Below, piece after piece: positions 3,492 to 25,176 of a DNA stretch of 44,786 nucleotides; position 1 is the stretch's first letter, and each line of letters starts with the position of its first letter. The stretch is from a phage: the NCBI GenBank assembly GCA_012646845.1, contig GCA_012646845.1_4707.2; one strand, written 5' to 3'. A model generated the notes under the pieces. The model worked only from the letters and a program-made list of their open reading frames with translations. It did no database searches and was not told where the DNA came from. The position numbers and the translations under genes were made by a program.

Positions 3492-3615
3492 TTTTTATCC
3501 TTAATGTTATCGATTTGGAAATATTACTTATTTACTGTTTTCTTTATCAACAGTTGTTACCCACGACATGATGGCGGGATGAAAACAGAGCGTGAACGTA
3601 ACCTTCGCGTCGTAT

Positions 3616-4098
3616 TTAAACGCGCAGTTCGCTAGCCGAGTATCGAACGTTTTCCTTTTCGTCTGGAGAGTATTCCATCGTGTAGAATTCATAACCATCG
3701 GAAAACTTGAGTGTTAATGTAATAGGGAAATCGCACGGCATAGCTGATTTCGTAAATGCGTTATTAGCAACATCAGCCAACCGACGTATAGCATCAGTCC
3801 CGCTGACGCTGAACGGTAGTTGTATGTTGATAAGGATACGATGCTTGTAAACATAGAAAACAACGGTACTGTCGAGATAAACGCTGTGGAACGGTATTGT
3901 TGGGATGCGTTCCACGATGGTAAAATACGTCCCGTCATTATCGCTATGTCCCACCGACCAAATATCGGATTTGCGTAGATTTTGTTTGAGAGATTCGATG
4001 CTTCGAGTGACGGTATCAACAACAGGTGTAACGTAAGTGTCTTTATGCGAGTCGAAAAGTTCGTTGACGTTAGATTCGAATGAATACGTTGTTGCCAT
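3616..4098 (-). CDS. hypothetical protein (160 aa)
   Basis: ORF track; co-oriented gene block. Confidence 0.6.
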   Translation of the reverse strand: MATTYSFESNVNELFDSHKDTYVTPVVDTVTRSIESLKQNLRKSDIWSVGHSDNDGTYFTIVERIPTIPFHSVYLDSTVVFYVYKHRILINIQLPFSVSGTDAIRRLADVANNAFTKSAMPCDFPITLTLKFSDGYEFYTMEYSPDEKENVRYSASELRV

Positions 4099-6619: not shown

Positions 6620-7258
6620 TTATGCGAAGCGACGCATGTAACCTGCCAGATAGTTACGTGTATCGAAGTAAGCAATTTCAGGAATTGCGATATTAAGGTC
6701 GATAGCACGGATTTCAACTTGGCGACGGCTTTCATCATAGATCGCATCCATCAGACGCAGTACTGTCAGGAAAGCCATGCGGGTATGGTAGTCCAGCGGC
6801 ATGTTATCGATACCACGATACAGATAACGGTTTGCGTTAAACGCCCCTTCGCGGTTATCTTTCCAGATCTTCAGAATATCAGCAAAGGCGGTGCGGAAAA
6901 CCTCAGGATTATCCACATCCAGTAACGCACGGAAAGCAGACATTAAAGACCGCTGATGACGGATCAACGACTGCGGTGTTTGCGGCATGGTCGGACCCAT
7001 TTCTTCCGCATATTTCTGGAACGGAGCAACCAGGGTTGCGGCACGAGAAGCCACGATAGAAACAGCAGGCGATTCTTTCACCGCCGGTTTCGCAGGCTTT
7101 TCTTCAACGGCGGTTTCCTTCTTCTCAACAGCAGCCGTTTCCGGTTGTGCTACAACGTTGTTGATTGGAGCAGCAGCCGCACCATTTTCCACGGTGGTCT
7201 CTACTGCTGTAATCTTTTCTTCCATTTGTGCGGAACGTTGGTCTTTATTCTTGCTCAT
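6620..7258 (-). CDS. hypothetical protein (212 aa), Ala/Glu/Lys-rich N-terminal low-complexity region
   Basis: ORF track. Confidence 0.65.
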   Translation of the reverse strand: MSKNKDQRSAQMEEKITAVETTVENGAAAAPINNVVAQPETAAVEKKETAVEEKPAKPAVKESPAVSIVASRAATLVAPFQKYAEEMGPTMPQTPQSLIRHQRSLMSAFRALLDVDNPEVFRTAFADILKIWKDNREGAFNANRYLYRGIDNMPLDYHTRMAFLTVLRLMDAIYDESRRQVEIRAIDLNIAIPEIAYFDTRNYLAGYMRRFA

Positions 7259-9567: not shown

Positions 9568-10041
9568 ATGCCAGTTTCATCCAAACCAAGAAAGAAATCA
9601 GTAGGAAAACCTAAAGCTCAGGAAACAACAGCGATTCGTTGGGACGAGTTACGTGAACCTATCGAAAACTGCGAATTGTTATTAGGCACCCTGGGTGCGG
9701 CTATTTACCAAGCGACACAACCCTGTCGTTTACGATTAACCCAAAACAAGCGTGATGAGTTCGTTGCGTTATCAACAAGTACGAATAAAGATCTGACCGA
9801 ACTTCAAACCGAGTTGACGACGATCAAGAACTCCATTACGCCGATGTATGGTAAAGAAGTCGATGAACAAAGTATTCTGTTACAGTACAACTACGGGATG
9901 TCGTTAATGAATATCCTGGAACGTGCATCCGATATTCTGCGTCCTGACGTTGCACGCCTGAGCCAACTGCGTGTTGAAGGGATGGAGAACCAGATCCGAT
10001 TCGCTAACAGTGTTAAATCTCAAGGAGCCACCGAAGCATGA
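9568..10041 (+). CDS. hypothetical protein (157 aa)
   Basis: ORF track; AGGAG RBS upstream; stop overlaps next start (ATGA). Confidence 0.65.
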   Translation: MPVSSKPRKKSVGKPKAQETTAIRWDELREPIENCELLLGTLGAAIYQATQPCRLRLTQNKRDEFVALSTSTNKDLTELQTELTTIKNSITPMYGKEVDEQSILLQYNYGMSLMNILERASDILRPDVARLSQLRVEGMENQIRFANSVKSQGATEA

Positions 10042-11696
10042 GCGAACAAGAAAAAGAAGTCGTGACGAATCAGGAAGCCATTGAGCCTTCAGAGTCGTCC
10101 GTTGAAACAATGATTCCAGCAAGTGAGGGTAAAGACGAAGCTGTCACTACCGAAGGAGATGTAGCGGCTCCAGAAGCAACCCGTGAAGAAGAACCATCGC
10201 ATCCACCGCTGGTCGATTTCTCGAAGGCGACGATACGTTTCCAATGCGAAGACATTCGTCCTAAGAGTCCGAAGAAAACAAAACGTCAGCCGTTGGTGTT
10301 ACCGCTGTATTCTCCGCGTGTACAGACAGCGTATTACAAGGAATACATCAACGAAGCAATGGATACCGTGCAAGCCATTGTCGCTCAACGCGGTAAACCT
10401 TCGGACGAGCAATTTGATAAATTCAGTAAAGCGGTAGTGCAATCGGTTGCTGATGGGCAATACCAACCGCGTGGGCCAGCTCATGATCGTGCGTTGGAAC
10501 GTAAGGGTAGTCAGTGGACTAACGTACCCGTAGACTCATCGGGTGTTGGTCGTGTTATTCCTGGCATCCCACAACCGAACCATATTCCTGATGATGTCGA
10601 AGCGCCGTTGACAGGAACCGATGCGATCTATTTTGCTATCCGCAATACGAAATCGGGCGCACCTGCGGTAATGCCGTTATGGCATAGCGGTATTAAGCTG
10701 CAGTTCAATCCACCGTCAAATGAACGTGTTGCGATTATGCATGAACGTATCGCACGTGATAAAATCCTGGGTGGACGTGATAGTACCGGTTTCCTGTTTT
10801 CGGCAACCTCGATTATCACCATGAAGCATGCTATCGAATTAGCGTTAGAATGCTGTTACATGGCCAACGTACCGAACCTGGATATCCAGCGTTTGAAAGA
10901 CATTATTCCGGTTACCGATGTTCCAGCGTTATTGTTGAACGTGCTGGTAACCATGTACCCGTACGGCTATCCTTACGTACAGACCTGCTATCAGAATCCA
11001 GAAACCTGCGACTATCGTGTTGAAGATACCGTAAGCTTTGCGAAGCTCTATCAAGTTGACAACAGCGCAATTACCAAACGTATGCGACAGATCATGACCG
11101 AAGGTCCGGTCATGACAGATGAACTTTTGCGTGAGTATGCAAACGAGCTGGGCGAAACAAACTCCCGTACGCTGGATCTGTCTGACAACGGTTCGGTTAT
11201 CATTGAGCTTGAAGTACCGAAGATTTCACGTCAGATTGCCATGGGTGAACGCTGGTTAAGTGATACCCTGGAAGATCTGCGTGATATTCTATCGCGTCCG
11301 TCAATGACCGAAGAAGAGCGTGATCGTGTTATTCGTGAGCGTCAGTTCTATAGCTGGATGCGTCAATATGATGCGTGGATCAAATCGATGCATGTGTCGG
11401 TAAACGGCACCATGCGTCGTGTAAGCGATGCAGATACGGCAACGGTATTAGCACAGCTGTCTCGTGATAGCGACCTTCGTGAACGCTATATCGATGGGTT
11501 GATGCAGTTCATCGGTGATTCGACGATTGCGCTCGCAGCGATGCCTGCCTGGAAATGTCCGAAATGTAATACCGATATTGCTGACAATCTGCGTGACCAG
11601 AAATACTACGATCTGATTGCTTTGGATGTACCCCAGCTTTTTTTTACCCTAAACTCCGTCCAATCTCTTCAGGAGGGGATGGACGCGGTATTCTAA
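10038..11696 (+). CDS. hypothetical protein (552 aa), acidic low-complexity N-terminus
   Basis: ORF track; translationally coupled to upstream gene; T8 run 17 codons before stop. Confidence 0.75.
   Translation: MSEQEKEVVTNQEAIEPSESSVETMIPASEGKDEAVTTEGDVAAPEATREEEPSHPPLVDFSKATIRFQCEDIRPKSPKKTKRQPLVLPLYSPRVQTAYYKEYINEAMDTVQAIVAQRGKPSDEQFDKFSKAVVQSVADGQYQPRGPAHDRALERKGSQWTNVPVDSSGVGRVIPGIPQPNHIPDDVEAPLTGTDAIYFAIRNTKSGAPAVMPLWHSGIKLQFNPPSNERVAIMHERIARDKILGGRDSTGFLFSATSIITMKHAIELALECCYMANVPNLDIQRLKDIIPVTDVPALLLNVLVTMYPYGYPYVQTCYQNPETCDYRVEDTVSFAKLYQVDNSAITKRMRQIMTEGPVMTDELLREYANELGETNSRTLDLSDNGSVIIELEVPKISRQIAMGERWLSDTLEDLRDILSRPSMTEEERDRVIRERQFYSWMRQYDAWIKSMHVSVNGTMRRVSDADTATVLAQLSRDSDLRERYIDGLMQFIGDSTIALAAMPAWKCPKCNTDIADNLRDQKYYDLIALDVPQLFFTLNSVQSLQEGMDAVF
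11639..11645 (+). other. T TTT TTT slippery heptamer (candidate -1 frameshift site)
   Basis: Heptamer is in X_XXY_YYZ register in the 0 frame of 10038..11696; the -1 frame is open from 11597 through 12118. Confidence 0.3.
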
Positions 11697-11788
11697 TCGA
11701 TCCGCGATACGGGTTACACGACGGACAACTTGTTCGTAATGATGAAAAAATCTGGGAATTGCTGTTAGCGCGTAAAGGCGACGGTGGC

Positions 11789-12118
11789 ATGAAACTGAAC
11801 ATCGAAATGGGTATTGCGTACGATACCATGTTTGGCATGTATGATCGTGTTAACGACTGGACGCCGTTGAAATGGGTTGCTCAGCACCCCGCTGAAGATC
11901 CCTGGGACAGATTAGGGATTAAGCCCTTAATCGAGGATTATGTTCGATTCGGTATTAAAGAGTTCATGACGCTGGATGCGTTTTTACAAGCACCGTATCC
12001 TTACGCGCAAACGGTACTCAAAATCGCACAAGACGAACTGCGGAAACGTAGTGCGGTACTGGACGACGATGAGGACAAGTTACGACGAGAAGAAGAACGT
12101 TTACGAAACGGAAAATAA
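11789..12118 (+). CDS. hypothetical protein or frameshift extension of 10038..11696
   Basis: Track ORF begins with TTG at 11759; first ATG at 11789; frame continuous with -1 frame of upstream gene. Confidence 0.45.
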   Translation: MKLNIEMGIAYDTMFGMYDRVNDWTPLKWVAQHPAEDPWDRLGIKPLIEDYVRFGIKEFMTLDAFLQAPYPYAQTVLKIAQDELRKRSAVLDDDEDKLRREEERLRNGK

Positions 12119-12119
12119 A

Positions 12120-12629
12120 ATGGCGAGATTTACCAGTTTGATTGGGTTGGATATTTGGGAAACACCGGCTGACGTTCGGGTTATTCCTGTCAACACCGTC
12201 GGTGTGATGGGGCGTGGTCTTGCCAAGCAGGCAGCTGATCGTGTACCCGGTCTTCTTGAAGCGTACCGTAAGCAATGTCGAGATGGGTTTAAGGTGGGCG
12301 AAGTCGTATCGTATCAACATGGCGATAACGATCAACTCACCTACGTGTTGTTTCCATCAAAATCGGATTGGCGTGAAAGAACACGGCGCGAGTATATCGT
12401 TAACGGTTTACTGGCGTTAAAAGCGTGGTTATTGGAGCTTCAGTTCGAAAGAGACGGCTTCTCATACCACCGTCCGGCTGAACCACTGATTGTCGCAATT
12501 CCTCCGGTTGGTTCTGGTTGCGGTAATATCGGTTACGGACAATCCGAGACAATCCAGCCTCAATGGGTACGCGCACAAATCAAACAGTATCTTGCCACCG
12601 TGCCAAACGTTCATTTCTACTTGTTCTAA
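12120..12629 (+). CDS. macro-domain protein (putative ADP-ribose binding/hydrolase)
   Basis: ATG at 12120; motifs VIPVNTVGVMGRGLAKQAADRVPG and IAIPPVGSGCGNIGYG resemble macro-domain glycine-rich loops. Confidence 0.7.
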   Translation: MARFTSLIGLDIWETPADVRVIPVNTVGVMGRGLAKQAADRVPGLLEAYRKQCRDGFKVGEVVSYQHGDNDQLTYVLFPSKSDWRERTRREYIVNGLLALKAWLLELQFERDGFSYHRPAEPLIVAIPPVGSGCGNIGYGQSETIQPQWVRAQIKQYLATVPNVHFYLF

Positions 12630-23871: not shown

Positions 23872-24462
23872 TCAGATTAAATATAAACTTCTTAAACGTG
23901 GAACACGATTCGAGATAAACGTAAACGGCCTTAACGACCGCATAAAATTCCGCGCATACCCTCTATCCCGACAAAGCGAGGGGGGTTTATCCATCGGAAA
24001 ATCCGTAGGAGACCGATAGGTGTTTTCCTGTTGATACGTAAACAAGAAATCGATCCAATGACTGATGTAAGTGAATAGCTTCTCAGGGATAGCTAAACCG
24101 CGATCATGCAGTCCTGCATAAAGCCTCACCGCTGAAAAGAAAGCCCTCGGCTGATAACCAGACCATGCTGTCTGATCGCCGAAGTGGTACATCGTAAAAT
24201 CATTAACTTTCGATCCGCTTGGCGCATCCCAACGATCCCACACGTACGCACTCGCACCCGACCCTAAAACCCCGAATTTCTGATAATACCACTGCTGTGA
24301 GTCATACCAGAAATTCACAACATTCCGAATCATGAGGTCACGTCGTTCAGCCGGTACGTCCATATCCAGGAAGACCCATGGATGTTGGTAGCCAGGATAA
24401 GGCTGACCACGCCAACTGTCGAACGTCAACGCTTCCTCTTGCCATGATGCTTCAGGATACAT
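23872..24462 (-). CDS. hypothetical protein, Trp/Tyr-rich (196 aa)
   Basis: ORF track; first gene after strong terminator. Confidence 0.6.
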   Translation of the reverse strand: MYPEASWQEEALTFDSWRGQPYPGYQHPWVFLDMDVPAERRDLMIRNVVNFWYDSQQWYYQKFGVLGSGASAYVWDRWDAPSGSKVNDFTMYHFGDQTAWSGYQPRAFFSAVRLYAGLHDRGLAIPEKLFTYISHWIDFLFTYQQENTYRSPTDFPMDKPPSLCRDRGYARNFMRSLRPFTFISNRVPRLRSLYLI

Positions 24463-24518: not shown

Positions 24519-24577
24519 CTCAAAAAAAAAAACAAAAAATAGGAAAACGATGCTCATCCTTTTAGGGATGAGCATCG
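24519..24577 (-). terminator. rho-independent terminator (minus strand)
   Basis: Perfect 12-bp stem CGATGCTCATCC/GGATGAGCATCG (24548-24577), followed on minus strand by TTTTCCTATTTTTTGTTTTTTTTTTTG. Confidence 0.8.
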
Positions 24578-24597: not shown

Positions 24598-25176
24598 TTA
24601 ATAAGGAATCAGATCGTTAAGCTTTTCTTCTTCAATGACAAAGAAGTTGTTCTGGTCGTCTAAATCTGTTAGCAGGACTTGTCCGACAGTAAAGCACGTG
24701 CCACCCTTCTTAGGCATCCATACCGGCTCATTCGTTACCTTATCGGGATACCATTTGAAACGATTGGTATCCAAGAAGAACGCAGCTTTGTTCGCTTTAT
24801 CCGTTGATCGGTAGCTTACTAACGCTGGCCATTCGATCCAGGTATTTGTGCATGGCACATGTAAAGGATACCATGCACGCCAACGTTTGCCCGGCTTGTT
24901 AGGATCAACCCAATACTCGGCAGTCAATACAGCATCTTTATAATGTTTCTGTATTAACATTTCGAGCACAAGCTCATTGCCTTTTGATGAATCTAAAGTC
25001 ACTTCAGCCATATAAAGAGATTTAGGTAATCCAGACTGTTTTGTGGGTAGCGTTACGACACCGGTAACCAACGGTCTGCTCGGCTTACGCTTCCGTTCTT
25101 TCCGATGTGTGTAAAGGAATAGCCCGATAGCTGCGGCAACAAGTATAATAAACAACACTACCTTAATCCAATTCAT
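24598..25176 (-). CDS. hypothetical membrane-anchored protein (192 aa)
   Basis: N-terminal TM segment WIKVVLFIILVAAAIGLFLY followed by basic stretch. Confidence 0.65.
   Translation of the reverse strand: MNWIKVVLFIILVAAAIGLFLYTHRKERKRKPSRPLVTGVVTLPTKQSGLPKSLYMAEVTLDSSKGNELVLEMLIQKHYKDAVLTAEYWVDPNKPGKRWRAWYPLHVPCTNTWIEWPALVSYRSTDKANKAAFFLDTNRFKWYPDKVTNEPVWMPKKGGTCFTVGQVLLTDLDDQNNFFVIEEEKLNDLIPY

Follow-up and report, generated by a model that had tools for sequence, protein, structure and literature searches.

In bacteria and their phages, a -1 shift of the reading frame is known to yield two proteins from one coding region. Xu, Hendrix and Duda are said to have described, in 2004, the frameshift of tail assembly chaperones, with the G/GT products of phage lambda and the E/E+E' products of phage P2 as examples. 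In the case of the T7 proteins 10A and 10B, the shift is stimulated by a distant 3' element. The slippery site of T7 gene 10, G_GUU_UUC, lies close to the 3' terminus of the gene for the major capsid protein (PMC5009743). Here we analyze a stretch of phage DNA of 44,786 nucleotides (nt) (contig GCA_012646845.1_4707.2 of the GenBank assembly GCA_012646845.1; the whole stretch is referred to below as the window), in which a run of eight T residues (T8) near the 3' end of a gene for a protein of 552 amino acids (aa) opens into a downstream reading frame. The comparison of this locus with its relatives indicates that the T8 run is most likely a programmed -1 ribosomal frameshift site that is conserved across the Chimalliviridae. 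That the frameshifted fusion is made, be it by ribosomal or by transcriptional slippage, appears highly probable from the same sequence comparisons.

The zero-frame open reading frame (ORF) covers positions 10038..11696 of the plus strand and encodes the 552-aa protein of 62.2 kDa. The T8 run is found at 11638-11645, where the local zero-frame codons are ...CCC CAG CTT TTT TTT ACC CTA AAC..., and contains the slippery heptamer T_TTT_TTT (11639..11645, +), which is in the X_XXY_YYZ register of this ORF. Sixteen sense codons separate the heptamer from the zero-frame TAA (11694..11696, +) that ends the 552-aa product. In the -1 frame, a TGA at 11594-11596 is followed by an open stretch that extends from 11597 up to the TAA at 12116-12118 and whose earliest TTG and ATG are located at 11759 and 11789, respectively. 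A preceding sequence-only reading of the window had reported the heptamer, its register near the 3' end of the gene, the -1 open stretch 11597-12118, and both potential start codons, and all of these coordinates agree with the sequence. After a -1 slip the next codon read would be TAC (11645-11647), and the predicted junction is ...PQLFF-YPKLRP.... The segment decoded after the shift (11645..12118, +; phrog_12109) comprises 157 codons plus the TAA and forms the C-terminal extension of a predicted trans-frame product of 536 + 157 = 693 aa and 78.7 kDa. The same reading had proposed that an extension of ~158 aa is fused to the 552-aa protein; the fusion is supported, but the 157 residues replace the last 16 residues of the protein instead of being added to all 552.

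At the nucleotide level, the window region shares 95% identity with Escherichia phage Goslar, one of the nucleus-forming jumbo phages (Chimalliviridae), and the window represents a Goslar-like E. coli jumbo phage. The 552-aa protein is a homologue of Goslar gp081, phiKZ gp77, and Noxifer gp073 (phrog_4585/8054), and the downstream ORF (11789..12118, +; 109 aa) is the equivalent of Goslar gp082, which is annotated from the ATG that corresponds to position 11789. A tblastn search with the 552-aa protein resulted in matches in 160 phage records, including phiKZ gp77, and an exhaustive HMMER search in a library of 50%-identity cluster representatives provided 1222 matches at E <= 1e-3. We then compared 27 loci, namely, the window, a relative of metagenomic origin, and 25 phages of Pseudomonas, Erwinia, Xanthomonas, Ralstonia, Burkholderia, Klebsiella, Serratia, or Vibrio; the hosts of the 27 loci belong to 10 genera, and most of the loci are only ~20% identical to the window protein. 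At the junction, all 27 loci have the downstream ORF in the -1 frame, and in 26 of them the annotated downstream ORF lies in this frame. The exception is Pseudomonas phage RVTF4 (L014), in which the ORF begins in the -1 frame and the frame is broken farther downstream. As compared with the close relative Psa21, this break is found in the middle of the domain, at ~3583-3650 (...RPRGELWNNSLKRSVP followed by a stop versus ...RPRGGHLDKLYQEMGAV...), and it is probably due to an indel or a sequencing error in that record. Without exception, the -1 frame is open for 49 to 259 nt back into the upstream gene, and the -1 product counted from the slip site measures 154 to 176 aa.

The slippery site itself is also retained. 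According to the motif classes defined in PMC4066793, the heptamer is U_UUU_UUY in 19 loci, [A/G]_UUU_UUY in 7 loci, and A_CUU_UUU in a single locus, and the minimal Z_ZZN tetramer, U_UUY, is in register in 27/27 loci. Relatives that possess both ORFs and lack the slippery site, which the sequence-only reading had named as an observation that would speak against a shift, were thus not encountered, since all loci keep at least the tetramer. The site encodes Phe-Phe (FF) in 26 loci and Leu-Phe in the remaining one. Among 135 aligned family representatives, FF is kept in 129, and the zero-frame protein ends 8 to 34 aa (median, 15) past it. None of these 135 representatives contained the two parts fused in frame. 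This absence was established with the exhaustive representative search; a word-indexed protein search was unsuited for this purpose, retrieving two relatives with the -1 product and only six close gp77 relatives with a 22-sequence fusion alignment. The constant two-product geometry, together with the lack of fused forms, suggests that both forms and their ratio matter, and the geometry argues for a need for the short as well as the long form. Within the Goslar clade (7 sequences, down to 50% aa identity), the T8 run and the 12 nt that follow it (ACCCTAAACTCC; 11646..11657, +) are invariant at every nucleotide, whereas the flanking upstream codons vary synonymously. This 12-nt segment is dual coding, specifying TLNS in frame 0 and YPKL in frame -1, and it may double as a spacer.

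Codon choice at the Phe-Phe site provides further evidence. The first Phe codon is TTT in 26/26 FF loci, although the Phe codons counted elsewhere in these genes are 141 TTT and 346 TTC (29% TTT); in the G+C-rich phages Xoo-sp14 and RSL2, the TTT at the site is the sole TTT of the gene. When one representative per 40%-identity cluster was considered and the most favourable background was taken for each, the probability of the TTT-first pattern was ~1e-10. For the second Phe codon, TTT was found in 16 and TTC in 10 of the 26 FF loci. This codon is therefore free to vary, as a slip model predicts, whereas the first one would have to end in U because the A-site tRNA re-pairs there. Other FF dipeptides do not follow this pattern: within the window, 11 out of 13 have TTC first, and the FF dipeptides of all loci amount to 61 with TTC first versus 34 with TTT first, the frameshift sites being counted within the 34. 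The C-terminal FF of T4 gp26, a protein without such an extension, is encoded by TTC TTT.

The -1 frame bears the marks of a translated sequence well ahead of any conserved start codon. The first ATG, GTG, or TTG of this frame is located 14 to 85 codons past the site (85 in phiKZ, 68 in RAY, 56 in Phabio, 52 in Moabite, and 38 in the window), and the annotated downstream starts are scattered between a point 136 nt ahead of the upstream stop and one 218 nt beyond it. Upstream of those starts, directly after or across the zero-frame stop, we found the family motif GH[VI]x4-5FG[LY]. Its local version in the window, GILIDPRYGL (11687..11716, +, in the -1 frame), straddles the zero-frame stop and precedes every ATG, GTG, and TTG of the window's -1 frame. 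Members of the Goslar clade share the -1 peptide YPKL[RH]P from the site onward, and two of them lack the ATG annotated as the start in Goslar, with ACC (L039) or CCC (L040) in its place. The segment annotated as intergenic in Goslar (11697..11788, +) shows substitutions among relatives mainly at the third position of the -1 frame: over the 31 codons from the stop to the ATG, the substitutions in Goslar-clade relatives were 3/1/13 and 3/1/16 by -1 codon position, corresponding to 12 to 16 synonymous versus 3 non-synonymous changes. From this dominance of third-position substitutions it follows that the 31-codon stretch is coding and translated in the -1 frame. Judged from the alignments, the slip site is the only conserved entry into this frame. 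Taken together, the family-wide patterns of frame, codon choice, start codons, and coding signature support a -1 shift as the origin of the predicted fusion, as had been proposed for the window.

These data can be accommodated in the following model. Most ribosomes would read CTT TTT TTT ACC and stop 16 codons further on, producing the 62-kDa protein. A fraction of them would slip back by one base with two tRNA-Phe on UUU UUU, the A-site and the P-site tRNA each re-pairing from UUU to UUU, and would then read TAC CCT AAA ... to the TAA at 12116-12118, producing the 693-aa protein of 79 kDa. In the long form, the terminal helix, i.e., the last 16 residues, would be exchanged for a 157-aa domain. 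The downstream "gene," annotated as gp082 in Goslar and 076.4 in phiKZ, would represent, predominantly or exclusively, the C-terminal portion of this long form. The sequences directly show the site and the frame geometry, the conservation of both, and the coding nature of a -1 frame that has no start codon. We infer that the shift is ribosomal, and the same applies to its efficiency and to the roles of the two forms.

A number of observations qualify this model or weigh against it. (i) The window contains two A/T runs of at least 8 nt, and mononucleotide shuffles yield 1.9. The T8 run by itself is thus within chance, and the excess over chance comes from its in-register conservation. (ii) In 8 loci the P-site position is imperfect, and JHP1101 has the tetramer alone. 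(iii) A canonical start close to the conserved motif is present in about half of the loci, as exemplified by phage RP31 with an ATG that overlaps the stop, and some independent initiation may occur in such phages. (iv) The sequence-only reading had suggested a search for a downstream stimulatory pseudoknot, but neither a conserved hairpin nor a conserved pseudoknot was found across the relatives (mean z-score of -0.56 over 27 loci). (v) In Escherichia coli, U_UUU_UUU is reported to be only modestly shift-prone and far less so than A_AAA_AAG (PMC5009743), so that the efficiency of the shift may be low and the long form is probably the minor product. (vi) The predicted junction peptide YYDLIALDVPQLFFYPK is not among the matches listed for a mass spectrometry analysis of Goslar (see below), nor are the peptides LRPISSGGDGR, GILIDPR, YGLHDGQLVR, and IWELLLAR; the database of the published search consisted of annotated proteins only.

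With respect to putative local stimulators, a hairpin is predicted in the window at 11653..11689 (+), beginning 8 nt past the heptamer (-16.7 kcal/mol; z-score of -2.2). It is shared by the closest relatives only and is absent from L003, L039, and L040, which are more distant members of the same clade. The strong Shine-Dalgarno-like sequence AGGAGG (11671-11676), inside the 3' end of the 552-aa gene, belongs to this predicted hairpin and is followed, 2 nt on, by an in-frame ATG (MDAVF and then a stop), the two together covering 11671-11681; it may pause ribosomes or serve weak reinitiation.

Protein-level data are available for a Goslar virion preparation analyzed by liquid chromatography-tandem mass spectrometry (LC-MS/MS). 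Table S4 of that study reports 24 peptides for gp081 and 1 peptide for gp082, the latter with ~0.14 of the normalised signal of gp081 (doi 10.64898/2026.04.21.720040). As far as this table goes, the signals are compatible with a minor long form, which we consider very weak evidence. The preparation also contained chimallin and PhuZ, and the location of the protein in the virion is therefore not established by its detection.

The same 693-aa fusion would be obtained by transcriptional slippage if a phage or host RNA polymerase added one U in the T run. One extra U gives exactly the -1 frame, a T8 run is present in the window, Goslar, and several other phages, and the chimalliviruses rely on their own RNA polymerases; moreover, A/T runs of at least 7 nt are prone to slippage and avoided in E. 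coli genes (PMC4066793). Sites of this type usually consist of long A/T homopolymers, of 8 to 9 nt or more. The length of the run, however, is not conserved, since relatives have T5 to T7, with T5 in three loci (Noxifer, PA1C, and JHP1101) and T6 in nine others, and 10 loci have a C as the base that would lengthen it, i.e., as the last base of the second Phe codon. The conserved feature is the codon register and not the run length, which disfavours transcriptional slippage as the general mechanism. We consider it improbable as such, and it could contribute at the T8 run of Goslar-like phages. Alternatively, the two ORFs may give rise to two separate proteins, with the downstream ORF being initiated by a non-canonical codon (ATT at 11690 or ATC at 11696) or by termination-reinitiation at the TAA, and with the T-rich site being conserved merely through the conservation of Phe-Phe. 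FF is indeed a conserved protein motif that is also present in T4 gp26, the Shine-Dalgarno-like AGGAGG is located 13 nt before ATT 11690, and an ATG, GTG, or TTG is found 14 to 26 codons past the site in approximately half of them, with the RP31 ATG overlapping the stop. These fractions refer to the 27 loci. Separate starts would nevertheless leave unexplained the bias for TTT as the first codon in all FF loci, the preceding codon that usually ends in T, the -1 frame in 27/27 loci, and the overlap that is always open. In addition, the conservation of the Goslar-clade -1 peptide begins at the site, and no start position is conserved in the family. Two independently initiated proteins are hence a quite improbable account of the locus as a whole, while in some phages a free small protein could arise in addition through independent initiation.

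The sequence-only reading had also considered a homopolymer sequencing error or coincidence. As an artefact or decay, the locus could be one 693-aa gene split by such an error, or a T run could be found by chance beside an unrelated small gene. Homopolymers are error-prone, and a sequence as long as the window should contain about two T8 runs by chance. A sequencing error is excluded by the presence of T8 in Goslar, three IMG/VR contigs, and five further independent assemblies, to 50% aa identity, and, more generally, by the same layout in at least 30 independent assemblies, among them the reference record of phiKZ, that come from varied laboratories, platforms, and hosts. Coincidence is ruled out by the -1 layout in 27/27 loci, the TTT in first position, the lack of a conserved start, and the -1 coding signature; the absence of in-frame fusions among the 135 representatives also speaks against the splitting or decay of a single gene. 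This explanation is thus refuted for practical purposes, with a residual probability that we consider negligible.

The affected protein was characterized further. No Pfam match was obtained with the 552-aa protein, with the -1 product, or with the fusions, and the PHROG matches were limited to 4585, 8054, and 12109. Four cysteines, C317, C324, C507, and C510, are invariant across the 135 family representatives; they form two distant pairs, CX6C and CPXC, and are encoded at 10986-10988, 11007-11009, 11556-11558, and 11565-11567, respectively. In the gp77 family, F535 is invariant as well. This arrangement suggests a structural zinc site, as far as can be deduced from the conservation pattern. 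An AlphaFold2 (AF2) model generated from the 135-sequence alignment had a predicted local distance difference test (pLDDT) score of 84.6 and a predicted template modelling (pTM) score of 0.84, whereas a run on a 7-sequence alignment was discarded (pLDDT of 35). In the model, the FF motif (residues 535-536) is at the start of the last helix (531-551), and the shift would therefore exchange that helix for the 157-aa domain. The predicted fold of the 552-aa protein had no match among the solved structures in our PDB searches.

The genes neighbouring this locus in Goslar, phiKZ, Noxifer, and other phages code for the virion RNA polymerase (vRNAP) beta subunit, head proteins, a macro-domain protein, and a helicase. 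In the window, the gp082 equivalent is followed by the macro-domain gene (12120-12629, +; PF01661, E of 2e-5; 5576-6136 in L001), for which the longest ORF call is 11976..12629. The Goslar record begins this gene 50 nt upstream, within gp082, and the ATG at 12120, which is 1 nt past the gp082 stop, looks like a better start than the annotated one. The ORF at 6620-7258 of the minus strand (212 aa) corresponds to Goslar gp077, which a 2026 cryo-electron microscopy preprint identified as a capsid decorator protein bound between major capsid protomers. The longest homopolymer of the window is not the T8 run but an A11 run at 24522-24532, followed by A6 at 24534, and it is located between the minus-strand ORFs 23872..24462 and 24598..25176. 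Finally, an assembly of Salmonella enterica serovar Panama (GCA_007261085.1; L036) contains a Goslar-like jumbo phage as a contig of 180 kb, with a product of the present gene that is 87% identical at the aa level; this phage could be carried by the bacterium or be a contaminant. Among the gene calls shown for this contig, there is none in the part corresponding to gp082, whereas a call of 109 aa is present there in the Logan contig L037, which is identical.

A join or slippage is annotated in none of the records fetched for the 27 loci, and the pair is given as two separate genes. The downstream part appears in them with arbitrary starts, truncated, or as a gap; phiKZ 076.4, for example, is an 80-aa fragment of a 165-aa segment. 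The gene pair thus appears to be mis-annotated in every fetched record. Full-text literature searches, which covered journals outside subscription, provided no report of a frameshift in gp77/PHIKZ076.4 or in the Chimalliviridae, and the matches for "gp77" concerned the gene numbering of other phages. A large review on recoding mentions neither phiKZ nor jumbo phages (PMC5009743). The type of event is well known from T7 10A/10B, G/GT, and dnaX, and it is this instance, the depth of its conservation, and the affected protein that appear to be new. The frameshift would define a new protein of ~690 aa for phiKZ, Goslar, PhiPA3, RAY, and other model phages, and would represent a deeply conserved case of recoding on a plain U run without an obvious stimulator. 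It also offers a simple genetic handle, in the form of synonymous TTC substitutions or an in-frame fusion, on a protein whose predicted fold has no solved match, and is of relevance for phage engineering, proteomics databases, and frameshift-prediction tools.

As compared with known systems, the locus resembles T7 10A/10B in that a -1 shift occurs on a U-rich tRNA-Phe site near the end of a phage gene and that one mRNA yields a short form as the major product and a form with a C-terminal extension as the minor one. It differs in that the T7 protein is a capsid protein, whereas the protein analyzed here is not, and in that the extension is far larger (157 aa) and annotated as a separate gene. 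With the G/GT pair of the tail assembly chaperones it shares a conserved -1 shift near the 3' end of a morphogenesis-type gene, short and long forms, and conservation across highly divergent phages with little sequence identity. In contrast to G/GT, the gene is not beside tail tube or tape-measure genes, and its protein is 4 to 5 times larger. Tail assembly chaperone matches of the AF2 model in a Foldseek search against BFVD were insignificant (E of 0.7 to 2.1, probability of <=0.12). The tau/gamma switch of dnaX (A_AAA_AAG) is similar as a -1 tandem slippage on a homopolymeric heptamer in bacterial translation that sets the ratio of two products. The shifted dnaX product, however, is shorter through early termination, whereas it is longer here, and the dnaX shift relies on a defined Shine-Dalgarno sequence upstream and on a hairpin downstream, whereas no conserved stimulator was found at the present site.

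A further likeness, to T4 gp26, concerns the protein. In the Foldseek search, the chimallivirus homologues were followed by models annotated as "Baseplate protein" and as T4-like hub assembly proteins; the BFVD models named "Baseplate hub assembly protein, bacteriophage T4-like" had E of 8e-4 to 6e-3, a probability of 1.0, and TMt of 0.46 to 0.54, these targets being predicted models themselves. No solved gp26 structure turned up in the PDB searches. Both proteins have the C-terminal layout ...IPxxCPxC-(12-24 aa)-FFxL-short tail: T4 gp26 ends in ...CPECGKTHAHVIRGLKEFFELL, and its tail ...IKCPECGKTHAHVIRGLKEFFELL shows the same CPxC...FFxL arrangement, with hhalign aligning exactly the CPxC region, although this local match (IPxxCPxC) reached a probability of 9.7% only. 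Two distant Cys pairs are also present in T4 gp26, namely, CTC (CXC) at residues 82-84 and CPEC. As proposed for the present gene, T4 gene 26 has, according to its annotation, two nested products, gp26 and gp26', with the difference that gp26' is made by internal initiation. T4 gp26 (PF12322, phrog_150) differs further in its size (208 aa versus 552), in having TTC TTT and thus no slippery site, and in lacking a -1 extension. The PF12322 profile matched none of 22 family members at E <= 1, as compared with 9e-64 for T4 gp26 itself, and phrog_150 was not matched either. Since these sequence-profile tests fail, the relationship to gp26 is a lead and not a family membership. In T4 (L042, 3803-3860, -), gene 26 ends with ...GAG TTC TTT GAG TTA CTA TAA TG, and gene 25 starts in the -1 frame via the TAATG overlap with gene 26. 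The -1 product was also considered as a gp25-like baseplate protein, and this was rejected because it has no Pfam match of any kind and T4 lacks the slip site.

The model-based link to baseplate-hub assembly through T4 gp26 hints weakly at an assembly role, and the same role may be proposed, speculatively, by analogy with the G/GT logic of the tail assembly chaperones. In its boldest form, which we advance as a rather unlikely idea, gp77/076.4 would be a greatly enlarged homologue of T4 gp26, and the frameshift would be the chimallivirus counterpart of the G/GT switch, controlling the assembly of the baseplate hub or the tape measure. If this were true, the extra domain of the rare long form would dock another partner, and the tail-assembly frameshift rule would extend to jumbo phages and to T4-type contractile tails, in which it has so far gone unrecognised.

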